From contig CAURWT010000002.1 of assembly GCA_963528875.1 (NCBI GenBank), positions 191,680 to 223,679 on the forward strand: DNA of 32,000 nucleotides, in the 5' to 3' direction. The notes beneath the pieces are model-generated. The model searched no databases. It saw nothing but the letters and a program-made list of their open reading frames with translations, and had not been told where the DNA came from. Position 1 is the first letter of the stretch, and each line of letters opens with the position of its first letter. The DNA comes from an uncultured Candidatus Saccharimonas sp. Lineage in GTDB: Bacteria > Patescibacteriota > Saccharimonadia > Saccharimonadales > Saccharimonadaceae. This document shows positions 2,953 to 13,988 of this stretch, in pieces. A program made the translations under genes and the position numbers.

Positions 2953-3882
2953 CTATGAATTTACTTTATAGCTTAGTTTCATCATTTCTTTTGCAGTTTC
3001 TAATTGGTCGATACTATCTATTTTTATTTGATAACAGCCAGTAGCCCAATGTCCTTTTTTCGAAACATCTTCAATATCGAAATATATTTTTGGATCAAAA
3101 TCAGAACGTTCAATATTAAGATTTAAATATAGAGAGTTTTTCTGAACAATAATACTAAAAATATTTTTCTTTCTAACTTTAAAAGCCAAATACGTCTTCT
3201 TCACATCTGGTTGAATTTCTGGACTAATATTCTCAGCAAAATCTTTCAATTCCCAATAAAACTCCTGAATAGAATCCGAGCCTCTAGACACTAGTTCGTC
3301 TTCACTATAGTTGACAATTTCCTTGAGCACAGTTTTCTCGTCATTACTATTTTTTGCTATATTCGCTTGGCTTTTTTGACTTCTACCCTTTTTCATACCC
3401 TTTTGTAAGTACTCCACAATATCGCCATATTTCCTAAATTCATATAGTTCAACTGGGAAATTCTCGGTAGTATATTCGCTTGCTCTAAGCTGGTATTCAG
3501 TGAATTTTGGAGAAATAAGAATTACGCGCGACTGAGACCAATCGATTTCTGGTATTCCTCCTCCGTTTTTCTCAATAAATTTTAAAATAAAAGCTTCTTT
3601 ATTTTTCAACATCAACGATAAGTAAGCCAGACCTTGATCTGCAACAGAATCACTTTTAATTTTTTTATATTCAATGATTACAAAACTATTACTCTCATCG
3701 TCAAATGCCAAAGTATCTATCCGTAAATTGTCAACAGCAAACTCTGTTTCTATAAATCTTAACCCAAAAACCTCTTCAAGATTGTCTTCAGTCATTTTTT
3801 GAATATCTTTCTCAAGATATTTCTGAGAAACGTTCTCTTGTTTGATAGCTGTTAATTTTTCATTGTTCAATCTATAAAGCAT
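2953..3882 (-). CDS. Hypothetical protein with an N-terminal NucS/DUF91-like PD-(D/E)xK nuclease motif and a C-terminal DUF5655-like domain
   Basis: The ORF track gives 2953..3912 with a GTG start. I prefer the ATG at 3882 (MLYRL...), which is preceded by the SD GGAGAGGAG. The motif RIDTLAFDDESNSFVIIEYKKIKSDSVADQGLAYL fits the D..(D/E)xK..Q..Y pattern of NucS-like nucleases. The stop overlaps the ileS SD, so the two genes are co-transcribed. The domain names are recalled from memory, not searched. Confidence 0.6.
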   Translation of the reverse strand: MLYRLNNEKLTAIKQENVSQKYLEKDIQKMTEDNLEEVFGLRFIETEFAVDNLRIDTLAFDDESNSFVIIEYKKIKSDSVADQGLAYLSLMLKNKEAFILKFIEKNGGGIPEIDWSQSRVILISPKFTEYQLRASEYTTENFPVELYEFRKYGDIVEYLQKGMKKGRSQKSQANIAKNSNDEKTVLKEIVNYSEDELVSRGSDSIQEFYWELKDFAENISPEIQPDVKKTYLAFKVRKKNIFSIIVQKNSLYLNLNIERSDFDPKIYFDIEDVSKKGHWATGCYQIKIDSIDQLETAKEMMKLSYKVNS

Positions 3883-3903
3883 GTTTTTCTCCTCTCCTAA
3901 ATT

Positions 3904-4100
3904 AAAAATCACCTCTTTTAGACTCGAGAACCAAGCAAGCTCGGCGATACCATCTCGATTCCAAAAGAAGTGATTCTTTTAGCCCTTAATTTTAGCTTTC
4001 ACGGAGCTTTCCCGCCCAGTTCTAATCAGTTTTCGAAACCTTTCTTCTGGGAGCTTCGCGGTTGATAGCCGCTCATTCATCAAAATAAAACGCTTTTATG
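3904..4100 (-). promoter_or_regulatory. T-box-like riboswitch leader (Ile specifier AUC) upstream of the nuclease-like ORF and ileS
   Basis: Read on the minus strand. A GA/K-turn-like UGAUGAAUGA precedes the hairpin GCGG-CUAUCAA-CCGC, which carries AUC plus a purine in its loop (AUC = plus-strand 4064-4066). An F-box-like CCGUGA follows. The antiterminator-type element is UCGAGA / 7-nt bulge UGGUAUC / GCCGAG-CUUG-CUUGGU / UCUCGA (3958-3924). It is nested in an outer helix AUCACUUCUUUUGG / CUAAAAGAGGUGAU followed by UUUUU. Confidence 0.6.
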
Positions 4101-4106
4101 ATTTTT

Positions 4107-4135
4107 ATTTTATCAAAATTTAAAAATATTTTCAA
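4107..4135 (-). promoter_or_regulatory. Sigma70-type promoter for the T-box leader
   Basis: On the minus strand: TTGAAA (4135-4130), 17 nt, then TGaTAAAAT with the -10 hexamer at 4112-4107. Confidence 0.55.
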
Positions 4136-4309
4136 GCTTTTAAGTGTTTTATTTATTACTATCCTTCGGACAGCTAAATAAAACCGACACGACACTATTA
4201 TTTACTACTTTTAGAAATTTCCAACATTTCATCTGCGAGCTTTTTAGTGCCTTAGATTGCGATTGTCGCCTGTAAACCCTCCGAGCATCTCATCTTTAAA
4301 GCTTAATTA

Positions 4310-4347
4310 GTTGCCATATCCCTTAATAATTTAGAATATGACATAAT
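4310..4347 (+). repeat. Orphan degenerate CRISPR repeat
   Basis: The sequence gttgccatatcccttaataatttagaatatgacataat compares with the array repeat gttatagttccctaacaatttagaatatgatataat. The 3' 21 nt differ at two positions. The 5' part is diverged and carries a 1-2 nt indel. It lies 663 bp from repeat 1. Confidence 0.8.
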
Positions 4348-4364
4348 TACAGATGGATATAATA

Positions 4365-4391
4365 AAAATAGTGTAATATTTACACTATTTT
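4365..4391. terminator. Bidirectional hairpin terminator after the small-membrane-protein operon
   Basis: A perfect 12-bp palindrome, aaaatagtgtaa-tat-ttacactatttt. On the minus strand it is followed by TTATTAT. It overlaps the stop of the 76-aa ORF. Confidence 0.6.
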
Positions 4392-4615
4392 AAACTTTGA
4401 GAAACAAGAGATGGTATGGAAGATATAGAAAAATACACAATAATAGCTCCTATAATAGTGATTAGGAATTGAGTAACAACAATAAATGTTATAACATTAA
4501 CATTAGCTTGAATACTTCGTTGAATTTTATATTGAGCTTCTAAATAGTCCTTTTCGGTAAATTCATTTTTTTCTTGCATAAACAACTCCATTAAATTTTT
4601 ATATTTCTGAATCAT
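4385..4615 (-). CDS. Small hypothetical membrane protein (1 predicted TM)
   Basis: 76-aa ORF with a hydrophobic stretch VITFIVVTQFLITIIGAIIVYFSI. The start is uncertain. An internal ATG at 4579 has a GGAG SD 6 nt upstream. I recognise no homology. Confidence 0.45.
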   Translation of the reverse strand: MIQKYKNLMELFMQEKNEFTEKDYLEAQYKIQRSIQANVNVITFIVVTQFLITIIGAIIVYFSISSIPSLVSQSLK

Positions 4616-4970
4616 CAGTATAAGATTTAATTATACGTGATTTCCTGAAATAATAGTAAGGGATCTGTAGGGCAATAAAGAAAAGCCAAACAAATGAAGA
4701 ATTATTTTTTTGTGAATTATACATAAAAAACATAAGCACAAAAAAGAAAGATAGCCATAAAACATGTTTTCGCATTTTAGAAATTTCTTGGCGTATATCG
4801 TGCTTAAGTCGTTGTCTTAAAAGATTTCTTGTCTCAATCGCTAAAGCTTCTTTTTGAGTGTTTTCTTGATATGCATCTGAAGCTTTTCGCTGATTTTCTC
4901 TTGAAGCAAAACTTTTATTTTCTTCAATTTCAATATTATTGTTTAATGGCTCTATTATTTTCTTATCCAT
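4599..4970 (-). CDS. Small hypothetical membrane protein (2 predicted TM)
   Basis: The ORF track gives 4599..4985. The ATG at 4970 (MDKKII...) sits 6 nt downstream of a perfect TATAAT, so I prefer it. Hydrophobic segments are VLWLSFFFVLMFFM and FVWLFFIALQIPYYYF. The N-terminal half is charged. Confidence 0.5.
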   Translation of the reverse strand: MDKKIIEPLNNNIEIEENKSFASRENQRKASDAYQENTQKEALAIETRNLLRQRLKHDIRQEISKMRKHVLWLSFFFVLMFFMYNSQKNNSSFVWLFFIALQIPYYYFRKSRIIKSYTDDSEI

Positions 4971-4976
4971 AATTTC

Positions 4977-5005
4977 ATTATACATTAAGAATAAGCTTAT
5001 TTCAA
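4977..5005 (-). promoter_or_regulatory. Strong promoter for the small-membrane-protein operon, abutting CRISPR repeat 1
   Basis: On the minus strand: TTGAAA (5005-5000), 17 nt, TATAAT (4982-4977), then 6 nt to the ATG at 4970. The -35 box is 5 nt from repeat 1. Confidence 0.6.
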
Positions 5006-5010
5006 TAAAT

Positions 5011-5639
5011 GTTATAGTTCCCTAACAATTTAGAATATGATATAATAATGCCTTCGAAAATGTTTATCGAGAAAGAGTTATAGTTCCCTAACAATTTAGA
5101 ATATGATATAATAATGTATAAGAAACATGGTGTTATGTGTTAGTTATAGTTCCCTAACAATTTAGAATATGATATAATTTTAATACCAGTCTTAATTCCC
5201 ATATCTTGTTATAGTTCCCTAACAATTTAGAATATGATATAATTATATAAATTACCTAAATGCGGACTTGTTGGTTATAGTTCCCTAACAATTTAGAATA
5301 TGATATAATGAATTAGCCGTGAGATTATTTTGTTCAATTGTTATAGTTCCCTAACAATTTAGAATATGATATAATTGAATAGCGGCGAAAATAAACGTTA
5401 TTGAGGTTATAGTTCCCTAACAATTTAGAATATGATATAATCACGTTCATAACCATTGAATAGAGTAAATGGTTATAGTTCCCTAACAATTTAGAATATG
5501 ATATAATGCAAATATTATGGAAAACTCAAGCAAAAAAGTTATAGTTCCCTAACAATTTAGAATATGATATAATAAAATTTTCTTGAATTTTGATCGCATA
5601 CAGGTTATAGTTCCCTAACAATTTAGAATATGATATAAT
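5011..5639 (+). CRISPR. CRISPR array with 10 identical 36-nt repeats and 9 spacers (eight of 30 nt, one of 29 nt)
   Basis: The repeat GTTATAGTTCCCTAACAATTTAGAATATGATATAAT starts at 5011, 5077, 5143, 5208, 5274, 5340, 5406, 5472, 5538 and 5604. The plus orientation is chosen because the repeat starts GTT..., as type II repeats do, and ends in the extended -10 box TGATATAAT. Confidence 0.97.
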
Positions 5640-5646
5640 ACTTGCT

Positions 5647-5679: not shown

Positions 5680-6003
5680 TTAAAAAAATGAAAGTTGATC
5701 ATTCGAAACACGCCTTTCTTGCGCAGTTTTTTTACCAGCAATCACATACATATTCGTAAATTGATGCTCTGTTAAATAAATTAGCCGAATCGAACCAACA
5801 TCTGGCGCATTTCTCTTAACACGATTCATATGTTTTTCGGCGGCATCCCTATTCGGGCAAAGCCTCGTGTAAACACTATACTGCAACATATTAAAACCAT
5901 CTTTTAGCAAGAAGTTTCGAAAACGTGTTGCTATTCTTCTTTCTTTTTTACTACCCGTAGGTAGATCAAAAAATACCGCTACTCTCATAAATTTATATGC
6001 CAT
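5680..6003 (-). CDS. cas2: CRISPR-associated endoribonuclease Cas2
   Basis: 107 aa. The N-terminus MRVAVFFDLPTGSKKERRIATRFRNFLLKDGFNMLQYSVY is a typical type II Cas2. An AGAGGAAAG SD is present. The gene is adjacent to cas1 and the array. Confidence 0.93.
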   Translation of the reverse strand: MAYKFMRVAVFFDLPTGSKKERRIATRFRNFLLKDGFNMLQYSVYTRLCPNRDAAEKHMNRVKRNAPDVGSIRLIYLTEHQFTNMYVIAGKKTAQERRVSNDQLSFF

Positions 6004-6038: not shown

Positions 6039-6923
6039 TTATATTTTTGGCAACTCTAGACTACTTGAATCTTTCTTTAAAATACAATCAACAAAACTTT
6101 CAACCGTAATCTCAATTGCATTTTTAATTGCGAATTTTTTACCCTTAATCTTAACCCGAAATTCTAAAACCTCAAGCAAAATCCGGCGTTCTTCTTTCGA
6201 AAGAGCCGAATCTTCTTTTTCGAACCCACTCAAACCAAATTTTTTAAGCACGAACAGGTCGATTAGAGGGCGATACGCTTCAATCAAGTCATCTGCTAAA
6301 TTAAAGCTATTTAGCTCATTATGATGAAAAATACCTTGCGAAACTACCAGCCCACGAGCCGCCAAATGCCGTGCCAACCCTGTGCGAACAAGCGCATAGC
6401 TGTAATTTAATGCCGAATTATACCACATTGGCCGACGACGGGTTGCGTCATCAAGAAGCTGTGAAAAGTAGTCGCGTGCGGCTAAAGACTCACGATTAGC
6501 GGAATCTCCAGATTTAACTTCACTTGCACATTTTCGAAGATATTCATCATTTAAGCCAAAATATTTTAAAACATCAGCCTGATTAGAAATTTTTCGAATA
6601 ATATTATTCTGCCAAATCTGTTTTTTGAGTGGAATCTTCATCTCAATTTGCTGGCGAGATACTTTAGCCTGCCGCGAATGTTGAGAATATGGTAAAACTA
6701 TGGCCGTAGGAAGATGCTTCTGATCACAAATCACAACGCTCACTGCTCGAGAAGAGAGCTCATTTAATAGATTTGTGGTTAAGTTTAAACCATAATTATC
6801 AATTATTAACGAGTCGATATCTTCAATCGGAATCGAAACGTCTTCTTCTTGCGAAATTAAGAGCCGGTTATTTTTAACGCTTAGTCGAGCGGGATTTTCG
6901 ATAGAAATAATGCGCCACGCCAT
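6039..6923 (-). CDS. cas1: CRISPR-associated endonuclease Cas1 (type II)
   Basis: The ORF track gives 6039..6932 with a GTG start. The ATG at 6923 overlaps the cas9 stop as TAATG, so I prefer it. Length (about 294 aa) and position between cas9 and cas2 fit a type II Cas1. Confidence 0.92.
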   Translation of the reverse strand: MAWRIISIENPARLSVKNNRLLISQEEDVSIPIEDIDSLIIDNYGLNLTTNLLNELSSRAVSVVICDQKHLPTAIVLPYSQHSRQAKVSRQQIEMKIPLKKQIWQNNIIRKISNQADVLKYFGLNDEYLRKCASEVKSGDSANRESLAARDYFSQLLDDATRRRPMWYNSALNYSYALVRTGLARHLAARGLVVSQGIFHHNELNSFNLADDLIEAYRPLIDLFVLKKFGLSGFEKEDSALSKEERRILLEVLEFRVKIKGKKFAIKNAIEITVESFVDCILKKDSSSLELPKI

Positions 6924-9900
6924 TAAATCCACCTATAATTATCGCCCAGAACGGAGATATCGTAGCGTTCAATTGAAGTTATTGTACCACCAGAAATTCT
7001 ATCAGTATTCTTCTTATCTGCTTTATCGTGACCTATTAAAGATATTCTACCACTATCTATATCATAGCCAACATAATAACCCTCAACAATCTTATTTCCT
7101 GCATAAATCCGCACATAATCATTTGGATACAACGAAAATTGCTTGACAAATCCATTTTCTTCAGTCGCAAAAATCTTACCTTTTTCATCGCGAATTTTAT
7201 TAAAATCGGCTTTTTCTGCCACACTTCGCCCATTTGGCGTTGGTAAAATTTCAACTTTTTTAGCATTCAACAGATGCGCATAAATTGGCGAAAAATAGTA
7301 TTCAAATTCGCCCTTGTAATTTTTGCGCTTAAACACATCCAACCGAATCGTATCACCGTTATTAACAAAAGCTTTACCTTTGTTAATTAAGAAACCGCTT
7401 TTTGAATTTTGCGTATCATAAACCTTAATTGAGCGAACAATATTACCGCGACCACCATTTTTTGTTGGTTTATAAACTGGGTTGCTTGGGTCGCCAAAAG
7501 CTTTTTCTGGTTTATTACCAAACTTATTTAATCGTGCTTTTAAGATCTCATATAAGGCTGGGTCCGTTTCACTAACTGGTGATTTTTTAAGTATTTCTAA
7601 TTTTACTTTTGTTAATCGGATTCGTTGTTTCCGTGCTATAGCCGGCTTTCCTTCCGAATCTACGTAACCTTCGACAATTTTCGGTGAACGGATCGTTTCT
7701 TCATTAATATTACCCTTTCCCGAGCGTTTTGGCATTCTTGAAACGAAAATAGGCGTTGTTCTATTTCGAAAATCTTCATCATAATTCTCAAGACCAATTA
7801 GTTCGTTGCGAAGCTCCATTGGCGATTCATAATGAGCAGTCCTTTTTCGAACTTCTTTTCCAAAATCTTTCCACGGTTCAATATCCTCAAAGGTCTGTTC
7901 AAAATCCGCTCGACTAAAAATTTCACCCGTTATTTTATCAATAACTTCATCTTCCGCCGAATATTTAAAAAGTTCAAAATATTTGTTCAGGCGTGAAATT
8001 TTTTGAATAACACTTTGGTCGATCGCAGCAATTATACAGGCATCCGTAGCGTGATGAAGGTTGTTTTCTTCGCGATCCTTTGAGCCCACACGCCAAATAC
8101 GGCGCAAATAAGAAGTTATTGAACCATTCGGCACAATCACTCGCTGAGCTGGATTTTCATTCTCAATTTTAGCAAATTTCAAATTCTTACGAAGATATTG
8201 GCTTAAGAACTTTGAAATATATCGCGTATCATTTAACGCACGGCTATTCCAATCTTCTTTTGGTGGAACTTTCGCAAGCAATCGTTCTTTCTTTCGAAAA
8301 GGAAGGTTCATTGAATTTATGCGTGCCTCAAAATCAGCCCATCGGCTTTCATTAGCACCCCAAGCTTCGAAAGGTGCTAAATTACCTTTTTGGCGGTTTT
8401 CTTCAGTGAAAACTAAAACTTTATTTATTAAGCTGTCATTTCCGCAGCGAGAGAATGGAATGATGTGATCAATTTCGGCATAATGCTCATTGGAAAATAG
8501 ATTTTCTAAAACAAGACTTTTTCCAGAATAAACGCATTTTCCGTTTTGTTGTTCATAAAGTTTAAATTTGGTAATTTGTAGGCCGGTTGGCGAAGGAACA
8601 TTAAACTCGTTTTGAAGTCGCTCTTTAATACTTTCGTTGTAACTGGCATTTGCTTTTTGAGTTTTTTTAATTTTTTCACGTTCTTTAAAATTTTTAGCTA
8701 AATCACCCGCAGCTTCAATTTTAATTTGATATGGTGCGCCATATTCTCTGATAATGGCATTTACAACTTTAACAGTCTGCGAAACCGCCCGTTTAACAAC
8801 AGGATTTGTAATTTGAGCTGATTCTTCTTTCGAAAGGGGCGGAAGCTTGTTTTTATCCCCGGAAAGCTGCTGTTTTGTATCGTAGCCTGCATTTTCTGAC
8901 GCATTACGATATGTATCACCTTTCAATAAAAATGGCAAGATTTTTCTAAGCGCCTTAAATGACAAATGGCCAAAACCGCTAACATTAATCATCATCAATG
9001 TTTCAACTGCATCTTTACTTAAATTAAGCTTCGAAATCTCTTTTCGCAAATTTTCATCATCTTTATTACATGAAAGAATTTCACCAAGTTCATCTAGCAT
9101 TCTATAATTATTGTCACAAACTTTTTGCCAATCTTCTGGAGTGTTTGAAAGAACAGCTTTAACCTTATGATAAAAAGAAAGTTCACCGAATTTATTTTCT
9201 TCACCGTTATTTTTGCTATCTTTTTTAATCTCGCCACGAATCATATTTGCTGGAAAGCTAAAGTTTTCATCTTTTTTATAACCTAAAACTTCACGGATGT
9301 GTTGATATTTCAGCGCTTTAATATCCTTAGCTTTTTCAATAACTTTTGAAATTTCTTCTTCCGTTAGACCGCGCTCCTTGTTGTTTATTACAACCCTTAA
9401 GTGCGCTAAGTTTTCTGCCAAACGAAACATCTCGAAACTATAACTCGCTTTTGGCGCACGAAATTCAGATTTCTCGAGACTACACTTTCCGCGCATTTTC
9501 ATAATTAATTCACTAGTTATAAATGGGCGTTGCGAAAAAATTCCGTTAAAATTACCTTCCTTTTCGTTTCCAAAAAGGAGAAAATTAATCTTTTCATCTG
9601 AAAGCTTCAAGCCAAATTCTTTTTGAATTTTTAAAATAAGCTTCGCTTCATCTTCGAAATTCGCCCGCACGAAAGAATTGCTGTAATCTTCAGCTTTATT
9701 CCTTTTGTGAGCTATAAATTTTTCATTCGAATTTAACGCACTAGCAACAGTTTTATACTCTTTGAGTAACTTCTCGTTTTTTGAAATTGCTGAAAGAACT
9801 TTCGAATTTTCTTTATCGTTTTCTTCGGCAGATTTTCGATTACTTTTATATCCACGATGTTTAGCAATGTGATATAAACCAACAAAGAGTTCCTCGTTCG

Positions 9901-10228
9901 AGATCTTCTCATTCAACGCCTTTTCTCGAATTTTATATGGATCAAGTTTATTTCCTGGCTTTAAAAGCTCTTCAATTTGTTCTTTAGCTAATAGATTATT
10001 ATCTCTGAAGAATCTTTTAATAAAATTTAACCGCTGACGGCGACGCTTCAATCTTCTTCTTGTTGAGCGAGCTGTTCGCCGAGCTTCAGACAGACTTTTA
10101 CCATCTTTCGGGTTTTCTGGTTTTTCGAAAATCCGAACGCCAACTTTTTCGATTCTTTTGTTATCTTCATCGATTATAGCCCAACCAATTGAGGTCGTAC
10201 CTATATCTAAACCTATTGAGTACTTCAT
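6923..10228 (-). CDS. cas9: Cas9, type II-C size class (1101 aa), with all catalytic motifs intact
   Basis: RuvC-I is MKYSIGLDIGTTSIGWAII. The Arg-rich bridge helix is RRTARSTRRRLKRRRQRL. RuvC-II is IKIEAAGDL. HNH is EIDHIIPFSRCGNDSLINKVLV..ENRQKGN. RuvC-III is HHATDACIIAAI. Confidence 0.97.
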   Translation of the reverse strand: MKYSIGLDIGTTSIGWAIIDEDNKRIEKVGVRIFEKPENPKDGKSLSEARRTARSTRRRLKRRRQRLNFIKRFFRDNNLLAKEQIEELLKPGNKLDPYKIREKALNEKISNEELFVGLYHIAKHRGYKSNRKSAEENDKENSKVLSAISKNEKLLKEYKTVASALNSNEKFIAHKRNKAEDYSNSFVRANFEDEAKLILKIQKEFGLKLSDEKINFLLFGNEKEGNFNGIFSQRPFITSELIMKMRGKCSLEKSEFRAPKASYSFEMFRLAENLAHLRVVINNKERGLTEEEISKVIEKAKDIKALKYQHIREVLGYKKDENFSFPANMIRGEIKKDSKNNGEENKFGELSFYHKVKAVLSNTPEDWQKVCDNNYRMLDELGEILSCNKDDENLRKEISKLNLSKDAVETLMMINVSGFGHLSFKALRKILPFLLKGDTYRNASENAGYDTKQQLSGDKNKLPPLSKEESAQITNPVVKRAVSQTVKVVNAIIREYGAPYQIKIEAAGDLAKNFKEREKIKKTQKANASYNESIKERLQNEFNVPSPTGLQITKFKLYEQQNGKCVYSGKSLVLENLFSNEHYAEIDHIIPFSRCGNDSLINKVLVFTEENRQKGNLAPFEAWGANESRWADFEARINSMNLPFRKKERLLAKVPPKEDWNSRALNDTRYISKFLSQYLRKNLKFAKIENENPAQRVIVPNGSITSYLRRIWRVGSKDREENNLHHATDACIIAAIDQSVIQKISRLNKYFELFKYSAEDEVIDKITGEIFSRADFEQTFEDIEPWKDFGKEVRKRTAHYESPMELRNELIGLENYDEDFRNRTTPIFVSRMPKRSGKGNINEETIRSPKIVEGYVDSEGKPAIARKQRIRLTKVKLEILKKSPVSETDPALYEILKARLNKFGNKPEKAFGDPSNPVYKPTKNGGRGNIVRSIKVYDTQNSKSGFLINKGKAFVNNGDTIRLDVFKRKNYKGEFEYYFSPIYAHLLNAKKVEILPTPNGRSVAEKADFNKIRDEKGKIFATEENGFVKQFSLYPNDYVRIYAGNKIVEGYYVGYDIDSGRISLIGHDKADKKNTDRISGGTITSIERYDISVLGDNYRWI

Positions 10229-13799: not shown

Positions 13800-13885
13800 T
13801 GGTGCTGGGAGAAAGATTCGAACTTTCGAAGGCATCTGCCGACAGATTTACAGTCTGTTGTGTTTGACCGCTTCACTATCCCAGC
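13800..13885 (-). tRNA. tRNA-Tyr (GUA) with a long variable arm and encoded CCA
   Basis: Hand-folded. The acceptor stem is GCTGGGA/TCCCAGC. The anticodon loop is CTGTAAA. The variable arm is CGGCAGATGCCTTC. The T arm is GAAAG-TTCGAAT-CTTTC, followed by A-CCA. Confidence 0.9.
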
Positions 13886-13911
13886 ATTCAACTCTTGTAT
13901 TAAAAAATACT

Positions 13912-13988
13912 TGGAGCCACCTTTCGGATTCGAACCGAAGGCCTGCTGTTTACAAAACAGCTGCTCTAACCAGCTGAGCTAAGGTGGC
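13912..13988 (-). tRNA. tRNA-Thr (UGU) with encoded CCA
   Basis: Hand-folded. The acceptor stem is GCCACCT/AGGTGGC. The D arm is GCTC-AGCTGGTTA-GAGC. The anticodon arm is GCTGT-TTTGTAA-ACAGC. The T arm is TTCGG-TTCGAAT-CCGAA, followed by T-CCA. Confidence 0.9.

Follow-up and report, generated by a model that had tools for sequence, protein, structure and literature searches.

Organization of the ileS leader region

T-boxes are a paradigm of RNA-RNA sensing. We analyzed a T-box-like leader in a 32,000-nucleotide (nt) stretch of DNA from an uncultured Candidatus Saccharimonas sp. (assembly GCA_963528875.1, contig CAURWT010000002.1, positions 191,680 to 223,679 of the forward strand), hereafter called the window. 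The leader is encoded on the minus strand of the window at positions 3904 to 4135 and precedes a 309-amino-acid open reading frame (ORF) and ileS, the gene for isoleucyl-tRNA synthetase. A preliminary description of the window had recognized a promoter, a GA motif, a Stem I hairpin, an F-box-like sequence, a bulged helix (A1-bulge-A2) and an outer helix in which the latter is nested, followed by five U residues, and all of these elements lie on the minus strand where it had placed them. The features of the leader and the two genes are listed below. Counts out of 75 refer to the window leader and 74 relatives matched by our covariance model (R1), and values for pairing and covariation come from the alignments described in the following sections.

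4135-4107, minus strand: sigma-70-like promoter TTGAAA-17 nt-TGaTAAAAT (-35 box at 4135-4130, -10 box at 4115-4107), agreeing at 10 of 12 positions, plus an extended -10 TG
4088-4077, minus strand: 5' hairpin P0, UUAU-UUUG-AUGA, weak in the window and directly abutting the K-turn strand
4075-4073 and 4057-4056, minus strand: GA motif UGAUGAAUGA, whose UGA and partner GA are the two halves of a K-turn/GA motif around Stem I
4072-4058, minus strand: Stem I, GCGG-CUAUCAA-CCGC, with 4 base pairs (bp) and a 7-nt terminal loop; 100% paired, 2 of 4 pairs covarying
4066-4064 and 4063, minus strand: specifier AUC and stacking purine A, in the terminal loop of Stem I
4051-4015, minus strand: Stem II, with lower helix CCCAG/CUGGG (93% paired, 5 of 5 pairs covarying) and a variable upper helix
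4046-4042 and 4026-4021, minus strand: Stem II S-turn strands AAGAA and AUUAGA; AAGAA is present in 66 of 75 leaders
4014-3994, minus strand: Stem IIA/B pseudoknot, with IIA CGG/CCG and loop AGCU pairing with AGCU at 3997-3994; covarying
4004-3999, minus strand: F-box CCGUGA, aligned by the Rfam T-box model
3987-3983, minus strand: 5' purine string AAGGG (RRRxG motif) ahead of Stem III; A-A-G-x-G is invariant or nearly so in alignment A3
3982-3961, minus strand: Stem III, CUAAAAG-AAUCACUU-CUUUUGG, whose 3' strand and loop are also the terminator 5' strand
3960-3959, minus strand: AA linker from Stem III to A1 (3' purine string); AA in 72 of 75 leaders
3958-3953 with 3929-3924, minus strand: helix A1, UCGAGA/UCUCGA; 100% paired, 4 of 6 pairs covarying
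3952-3946, minus strand: 7-nt T-box bulge UGGUAUC, between A1 and A2
3945-3930, minus strand: helix A2, GCCGAG-CUUG-CUUGGU, with a G-U pair at its base; 93-94% paired, 5 or 6 of 6 pairs covarying
3975-3960 with 3922-3907, minus strand: outer helix AAUCACUUCUUUUGGA / UCUAAAAGAGGUGAUU, 16 bp, or 19 bp if the A-U pairs into the U-run are counted
3908-3904, minus strand: U5 run after the outer helix, the terminator 3' end
3897-3889, minus strand: Shine-Dalgarno sequence (SD) GGAGAGGAG of the first ORF, about 7 nt beyond the U-run
3882-2953, minus strand: first ORF, 309 amino acids, starting with ATG; its TAG stop lies within the ileS SD (TAGGAGGAATAATG)
2944-47, minus strand: ileS, 965 amino acids (Pfam tRNA-synt_1, E = 8.9e-117; Anticodon_1; DUF5915)

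The position of the promoter constrains the 5' domain. In 66 of 75 leaders, the K-turn is preceded by a -10-like box at a median distance of 27 nt, which puts the start of the leader RNA about 20 nt ahead of Stem I. A long Stem I therefore cannot fit, and Stem I must be ultrashort. The putative K-turn, as a sequence pattern, reads xGA in 57 and xAA in 12 of the 75 leaders on the 5' side and GA in 64 on the 3' side. The minimum-energy fold of the window leader (-63.2 kcal/mol, z = -2.9 versus shuffles) includes the nested long hairpin.

Of the 75 leaders, 50 have a hairpin directly next to the K-turn. This P0 hairpin, variable in sequence, occupies the site expected for the 3-nt bulge of the Stem I K-turn (GCGUU-(hairpin)-AUGAG) and may convert the K-turn into a three-way junction. 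It is absent from leaders of the type found at the related loci L013, L014, L033, L039 and L065 (GACGUUUGAG type).

The leader is conserved upstream of ileS in Saccharibacteria

A scan of the whole window at Rfam gathering thresholds returned two tRNAs and no T-box. In permissive mode, over positions 3800 to 4400 (601 nt), the T-box model RF00230 aligned end to end with the leader (model positions 1-219); the score was 33 bits, where the gathering score is 93, and E was 1.3e-5 in this search. The GA motif, Stem II, F-box, Stem III and T-box sequence were all in register, and the 80-nt core of Stem I was replaced by 26 nt. We treat this permissive match as a lead and not as a call. The other permissive matches (SSRC34, mir-3122, snoRNAs and TD-2; E values of 0.7 to 9.5) were due to the long hairpin and were discarded as chance.

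To follow the leader in related genomes, we used the IleS protein as a query and collected 80 ileS loci (L numbers) with 97% down to 58% IleS identity. Nearly all of them carry the label Candidatus Saccharibacteria (TM7; Patescibacteria, candidate phyla radiation [CPR]), a few being labeled uncultured bacteria, and the nearest named species is Ca. Nanogingivalis gingivitcus, with 80% IleS identity. An nhmmer search with the window leader detected a homolog ahead of ileS in about 60 of the 80 loci. R1, a covariance model with 183 positions and 35 base pairs made from 30 aligned leaders, gave exactly one match in 75 of 81 sources (55 to 180 bits, E from 1e-12 to 1e-46), in each case upstream of ileS and on the same strand as the gene, that is, in 74 of the 80 related species. 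R1 matched no leader at the remaining six ileS loci, L056, L071, L075, L079, L008 and L066; the upstream sequence available for L008 and L066 is short, and in the other four the leader may be absent or lie farther upstream. None of 13 diverse relatives reached the RF00230 gathering score, and in permissive mode the two best scored 42-50 bits. Standard RNA-family annotation at the curated threshold thus systematically misses the ileS leaders of Saccharibacteria, and riboswitch censuses of CPR genomes that rely on Rfam thresholds undercount them.

We then measured covariation on a 30-sequence MAFFT alignment (the A1 alignment), for a proposed structure of 40 pairs. This structure was paired in 91.2% of cells, compared with 71.6% in shuffles and 32-47% in controls in which the strands were slid, and 31 of the 40 pairs showed changes on both sides; for sequences as related as these, such shuffle comparisons of pair counts are not probabilities. 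In Stem I, covariation includes a swap from C-G to U-A at the second pair. IIA was paired in 97% of cells, and the IIB pseudoknot in 68%, in an imperfect alignment in which 4 of 4 pairs nevertheless covaried. Stem III, A1 and A2 were paired in 99.5%, 100% and 94% of cells, respectively.

The sequences expected to contact the tRNA are near-invariant. The AUC specifier, which the preliminary description had matched to the ileS gene downstream, occupies the terminal loop in 74 of 75 leaders, and in 73 of those 74 the next base is a purine. The bulge reads UGGUACC in 63 leaders, UGGUAUC in 5 (window included), UGGUAAC in 3, UGGAACC in 3 and UGGCACC in 1, so that 71 of 75 begin with UGGU. A G-U pair closes the base of A2 in 30 of 51 leaders; a G-U pair at this place has been described as a steric sensor (PMC7583486). 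The purine strings on either side of Stem III correspond to the discriminator signature 5'-RRRxG-Stem III-AA-3' (PMC7583486, PMC11404447). Because the tRNA-contacting features that we tested are all present, we assign the window leader, on the evidence of its sequence, to the T-box family. The T-box identification of the preliminary description was thereby borne out by a leader that recurs in 74 of 80 related species and in which all T-box helices covary. An Rfam match and the conservation of the AUC loop and the bulge had been proposed as its touchstones: no match was obtained at the gathering score, but conservation and covariation argue decisively for a T-box.

Match between the leader and tRNA-Ile(GAU)

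No tRNA-Ile gene was present in the window or in 60 scanned ileS loci (L001-L060). We therefore turned to metagenome contigs that carry the target of the TM7905 16S probe; we take these contigs to be of TM7 origin, and they do not belong to the genome of the window. ARAGORN identified 64 tRNA-Ile(GAU) genes adjoining TM7-type rRNA genes, for example GGGCGATTAGCTCAGCTGGTTAGAGCGCGTCACTGATAATGACGAGGTCGGAGGTTCAAGTCCCTCATCGCCCACCA. All 64 have the anticodon loop CUGAUAA and the 3' end ACCA, which consists of A73 and an encoded CCA. The AUC specifier is complementary to the GAU anticodon and UGGU to the ACCA end. Both the pairing of UGGU with an ACCA end and the A73 discriminator, which had been put forward as a check, thus hold in this set of contigs with TM7-type rRNA operons.

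The strand downstream of A1 has two alternative partners

In canonical T-boxes, the 3' strands of A1/A2 turn into the 5' strand of the terminator (PMC7583486). In the window, the strand that follows A1 (3922-3907) is complementary not to the A1/A2 strands but to Stem III (its loop and 3' strand) and to the first A of the linker (3975-3960), and A1-bulge-A2 is kept inside the terminator fold. The nesting of the antiterminator-like element in an outer helix had been noted before, with 14 bp where we count 16, together with the impression that the switching was not canonical. We found the nested arrangement to be conserved and covarying in most Saccharibacteria, and the evidence on the wiring points to Stem III.

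Both alternative pairings were evaluated on one 51-sequence MAFFT alignment (A3), which was fitted to no structure. Stem III with A1 and A2 was paired in 96.0% of cells, versus 77.7% in shuffles and 33-55% in slid controls, and the outer helix with A1 and A2 in 91.6%, versus 73.4% and 34-54%. Taken alone, Stem III was 95-100% paired, with 4 of 6 pairs covarying (its 3' strand occupies columns 37-43), and the 15 pairs of the outer helix were 91-93% paired, 12 of them with changes on both sides. Column 37 covaries with both of its partners, column 20 (GC 26, AU 16, GU 5) and column 102 (CG 29, UA 19, UG 2). Whole-sequence swaps are followed by all three strands, as in L040, L077 and L080, where AAAAG/CUUUU is replaced by UUUGAG/CUCAAA. 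RNAalifold, run unaided, returned the nested terminator as the consensus (-33.65 kcal/mol), with compensatory changes in 21 of 27 pairs.

We then folded the 3' domain of each of the 75 leaders individually, and 59, including the window, had A1-bulge-A2 inside the terminator (class N, nested). When the last strand was withheld, Stem III with A1/A2 was the minimum-energy fold in 59 of 59 nested leaders, with a median of -21.3 kcal/mol. In the full-length nested leaders the terminator fold won, with a median of -34.0 kcal/mol, and the difference between the terminator and Stem III folds had a median of -12.2 kcal/mol (range, -5.2 to -20.4). Outside the U-run, a median of 12 pairs join the downstream strand to Stem III (3' strand and loop), and the U-run after the outer helix has a median length of 5 nt. 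The values given by TBDB for canonical T-boxes are -7.4 for the antiterminator and -19.5 for the terminator, a gap about equal to that of the nested leaders.

Terminator classes among relatives

The other 16 leaders fell into two classes. In 9 of 75 (class C, canonical), the terminator strand pairs with the 3' strand of A1, which is broken, as in UUCCAAU-GAAA-AUUGGAA-U7. These leaders are located as follows.

L048, L053, L058, L059, L063, L070 and L074: about 3700-4000 in each locus
L069: 2691-2874
L078: 2516-2712

In two of them, L070 and L078, the strand after A1 pairs with the 5' strand of A2. All class C leaders lie upstream of ileS, score 87.6-116.6 bits with R1 and have an AUC specifier and a UGGUACC or UGGUAAC bulge. 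They resemble the window leader in aptamer, specifier and position and differ from it in that their terminator breaks A1 and that their Rfam scores are higher (42-50 bits). The presence of the same aptamer with a canonical terminator in nine relatives indicates that the family is transcriptional and that its expression platform has been swapped within the phylum.

The remaining 7 of 75 leaders (class O) have little or no Stem III, and their outer helix uses the strand beside the RAG purines. In five of them, the stretch from RAG to AA contains no Stem III hairpin.

L047: 3808-3980
L051: 1742-1918
L062: 509-716
L073: 3796-3974
L076: 3730-3908

In these five, a short strand straight after UAAG pairs with the strand just before the U-run and encloses A1-bulge-A2. 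Because the outer helix of class O pairs with the conserved AAG purines themselves, the comparison suggests a shared principle, in which strands compete for the Stem III region plus the purine latch and not for Stem III alone.

Proposed mechanism and alternative readings

We favor, as the probable though by no means certain reading, a tRNA-Ile-sensing T-box that would control transcription of the two-gene operon and in which Stem III, not the T-box helix, would exclude the terminator. Its ultrashort-Stem-I decoding module of the actinobacterial type is well supported, and from the strand pairings we infer that an intrinsic terminator, wired in a non-canonical way, provides the readout. Presumed steps are the binding of tRNA, the switch direction and strand displacement. 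As the RNA is synthesized, Stem III would form before A1-bulge-A2, and the invading strand would emerge last. Without uncharged tRNA-Ile, this strand would oust the 5' strand of Stem III and gain further pairs with the former loop. The resulting extension of A1 would be a long hairpin, made of 16 outer pairs together with A1, bulge and A2 and ending at U5, and it would terminate transcription. With uncharged tRNA-Ile, AUC and the A that follows would be read by the GAU anticodon, and UGGU would pair with the ACCA 3' end. If the 3' strand of Stem III were then unavailable to the invader, no hairpin would form next to the U-run, and RNA polymerase would read through into the operon. Two published observations bear on this step: an A1/A2 helix without Stem III shows no appreciable tRNA binding, and it is only on the tRNA-T-box duplex that the purine string latches (PMC7583486). 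Extended to most Saccharibacteria, the acceptor-binding bulged helix would be constitutive, and the decision would fall to Stem III and the purine latch, which hold the strand that the terminator needs. We give an even chance to this general scheme, which would be a previously undescribed logic. No description of such wiring was found in the literature that we searched, and in the same search, which was limited and is not proof of novelty, no paper paired T-box riboswitches with Saccharibacteria, TM7, Patescibacteria or CPR.

Several observations weigh against the proposal. The RF00230 score is far under the gathering score, the leader has neither a long Stem I nor an elbow platform, and the sixth base of the window bulge is U (UGGUAUC), compared with C (UGGUACC) in 63 of 75 leaders. 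The fourth base of the bulge would mismatch the A73 of the recovered tRNA-Ile genes in L014, L061 and L073 (UGGAACC) and in L043 (UGGCACC), and the tRNA-Ile sequences come from genomes other than that of the window. As A1-bulge-A2 persists in the terminator fold, tRNA might still touch the bulge in the "off" state. The nested terminators of the seven class O leaders, with little or no Stem III, indicate that competition by Stem III is not the whole story. The shuffle controls carry the restriction given above, and the mechanism, past the conservation of sequence and structure, is deduced by comparison.

These points bear on three other readings. The closest to ours accepts T-box and terminator alike but supposes that tRNA docked in the bulge, with a minor-groove latch made by RAG/AA, sterically or kinetically blocks closure of the base of the hairpin at the U-run, Stem III being only a part of the binding pocket. 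The class O leaders L047, L051, L062, L073 and L076, whose nested outer helix pairs with the AAG purines, would fit such a latch, as would the conserved purine strings and the linker A that is pulled into the outer helix in the window. On a latch of this kind alone, it is hard to see why the strand after A1 should match the Stem III 3' strand and loop in the 59 nested leaders and why 12 of the 15 outer pairs should covary, and we regard it as unlikely in place of Stem III competition; the two overlap and are not mutually exclusive.

It is considerably less probable that the hairpin and U-run are a constitutive attenuator or an RNA-stability element while the T-box acts elsewhere, for example on translation of the first ORF. 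Decoding modules of this type have so far been tied to translational control, and the SD lies only about 7 nt past the U-run, but the minimum-energy fold leaves this SD (GGAGAGGAG) unpaired and shows no evident anti-SD strand. Moreover, the alternating strand precedes a conserved U-run and not the SD, and in nine relatives the 3' strand of A1 is part of a textbook terminator. A translational reading in which the SD is sequestered was rejected, since the SD is unpaired and a U-run follows the alternating helix. Finally, the leader could be a decayed or chance T-box look-alike that senses no tRNA. This would agree with its 33 bits against 93, its atypical UGGUAUC bulge and the accessory gene between leader and ileS. 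We consider it highly improbable, given a leader that lies upstream of ileS in 74 of 80 species across 97-58% IleS identity, compensatory changes in every helix, a near-invariant AUC, UGG and purine strings, and a matching tRNA.

Comparison with known T-boxes

The decoding half of the leader resembles the ileS T-boxes of Actinobacteria (Mycobacterium smegmatis/tuberculosis and Nocardia farcinica; PDB 6UFG and 6UFM, cited in PMC7583486), a likeness that the preliminary description had rightly pointed out for this half. Both have an ultrashort Stem I ahead of ileS, with AUC and a purine in the terminal loop above a K-turn, which in the window is predicted from the sequence pattern, and without an elbow-binding platform. 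Both also have an S-turn in Stem II, the IIA/B pseudoknot with its F-box, the RRRxG-Stem III-AA arrangement and a UGGN-ACC bulge between A1 and A2. The window S-turn sequences match the S-turn of N. farcinica ileS, G37A38A39 / G67..A69G70A71 (PMC7583486), and the F-box is CCGUCA in N. farcinica and CCGUGA in the window. The actinobacterial elements are translational, the 3' strands of A1/A2 sequestering the SD (PMC7583486; TBDB preprint), whereas the readout in the window is an intrinsic terminator with a U-run, and it is the Stem III 3' strand that alternates. A search of the window leader for the SD sequestrator of the translational class found none, the SD at 3897-3889 being unpaired in the minimum-energy fold. 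The hosts also differ in phylum, Saccharibacteria (CPR) here and Actinobacteria for the ultrashort ileS T-boxes described so far; TBDB applied its translational Ile model to Actinobacteria only.

With the canonical transcriptional T-boxes (Bacillus subtilis tyrS and glyQS; RF00230), the window leader shares the composition of the discriminator and the terminator hairpin with its U-run. Canonical members have a long Stem I whose AG bulge and distal loop (the IDTM platform) rest on the tRNA elbow, whereas Stem I in the window has 4 bp; their bulged helix is destroyed in the "off" state, whereas that of the window stays intact within the terminator. For transcriptional T-boxes, a long Stem I that binds the elbow has been held essential, for fast capture of the tRNA (PMC7583486). 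We set the window leader apart as a variant because it has neither the long Stem I and the A1/A2-sharing terminator of the transcriptional class nor the SD sequestrator of the translational class.

A functional analogy can be drawn with other riboswitches. In generic two-hairpin riboswitch platforms, an upstream helix competes for the 5' strand of the terminator. The window leader would likewise have one strand with two exclusive partners, the upstream pairing being kept by the ligand-bound aptamer. It would differ in that the competing helix, Stem III, is a ligand-contacting part of the aptamer and in that the ligand is the 3' end of a tRNA.

According to the rules for T-boxes, which were drawn from Firmicutes and Actinobacteria, transcriptional control goes with a long Stem I, the terminator has an antiterminator helix as its competitor, and every member has a Stem III. 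The ileS leaders of Saccharibacteria break the first two rules, and some relatives the third, with an intact tRNA-contacting core. If our reading is true, an ultrashort Stem I can suffice for a transcriptional T-box, even though it lacks the elbow contact deemed essential, and Stem III, not the classical "antiterminator," can be the antiterminating element. The expression platform can be exchanged over a fixed aptamer, with canonical, nested and Stem III-less versions within one phylum. These leaders thus offer a natural experiment on the role of Stem III and the purine latch and hint at kinetic control without elbow contact. ileS T-boxes are also antibiotic targets, and Saccharibacteria are abundant, ultra-small epibionts of the human oral cavity that are host dependent, reduced in genome and hard to manipulate.

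A gene-insertion hotspot between the leader and ileS

The first ORF behind the leader is not ileS, as had been recognized from the start, and its stop codon overlaps the ileS SD: the TAG stop lies within TAGGAGGAATAATG, whose AGGAGG is the SD core. Its C-terminal domain matches Pfam DUF5655 (E = 5e-9), and over its full length it matches the candidate anti-phage family PADLOC PDC-S18 (E = 3.9e-83). It had been described as PD-(D/E)xK-like. We found it to be an inserted accessory gene that matches PDC-S18, and the PD-(D/E)xK matches to be weak: the N-terminal half gave sub-threshold matches to NucS_C (E = 0.005), HSDR_N_2 and PDDEXK_1, and a D...ExK pattern is visible. A nuclease-like nature is plausible but not established. 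A search of PDB sequences with the 309-amino-acid protein returned spurious antibody matches only.

Leader and ileS are adjacent in 46 relatives, L002 among them (median gap, 23.5 nt), and in 28 of 74 the slot between leader and ileS holds one to several unrelated genes. PDC-S18 occupies the slot in the window, L001 and L003. In L005, whose IleS is 97% identical to that of the window, it holds a PD-T7-4-like gene (3318-3857), and in L020 (610-4001) a type II methyltransferase and a GmrSD/HNH restriction enzyme together with PDC-S57, which is unrelated to PDC-S18. Further slot genes encode cupin, ArsC, GNAT, CAP and YunG-UDG proteins. The stop codons of several slot genes overlap the ileS start, and the genes differ between strains with 94-97% identical IleS. 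The slot is thus a hotspot for gene insertion, defense genes included, and its occupancy across relatives suggests that the window gene is a recent insertion that took over the original ribosome-binding site behind the leader. More speculatively, anti-phage genes (PDC-S18, PD-T7-4-like and restriction-modification genes) might be put under the control of tRNA-Ile charging by way of the slot, which raises the question of whether tRNA charging serves them as a cue of infection or starvation.

Neighborhood of the leader

On the same strand, a type II CRISPR-Cas locus immediately precedes the T-box promoter.

6923-10228, minus strand: Cas9
6039-6932, minus strand: Cas1
5680-6003, minus strand: Cas2
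5007-5641: CRISPR array, 10 repeats with a 66-nt period

A degenerate copy of the repeat on the same strand (4321-4349) could be the anti-repeat of a trans-activating CRISPR RNA (tracrRNA). Between the array and the promoter, the ORFs at 4385-4615 (76 amino acids) and 4599-4985 (128 amino acids) had no Pfam or PADLOC match; they overlap the possible tracrRNA region and may not be genes.

In the Ca. Nanogingivalis locus L002, a tRNA-Thr(UGU)/tRNA-Tyr(GUA) pair (3523-3701) is located about 100 nt upstream of the ileS leader. The same pair is present in L004 (312-488) and in the window at 13800-13988, where it is 9.7 kb from the leader, with ftsA, ftsZ, nrdR and the CRISPR-Cas locus in between. 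This difference in distance suggests a rearrangement or an insertion between the tRNAs and the leader.

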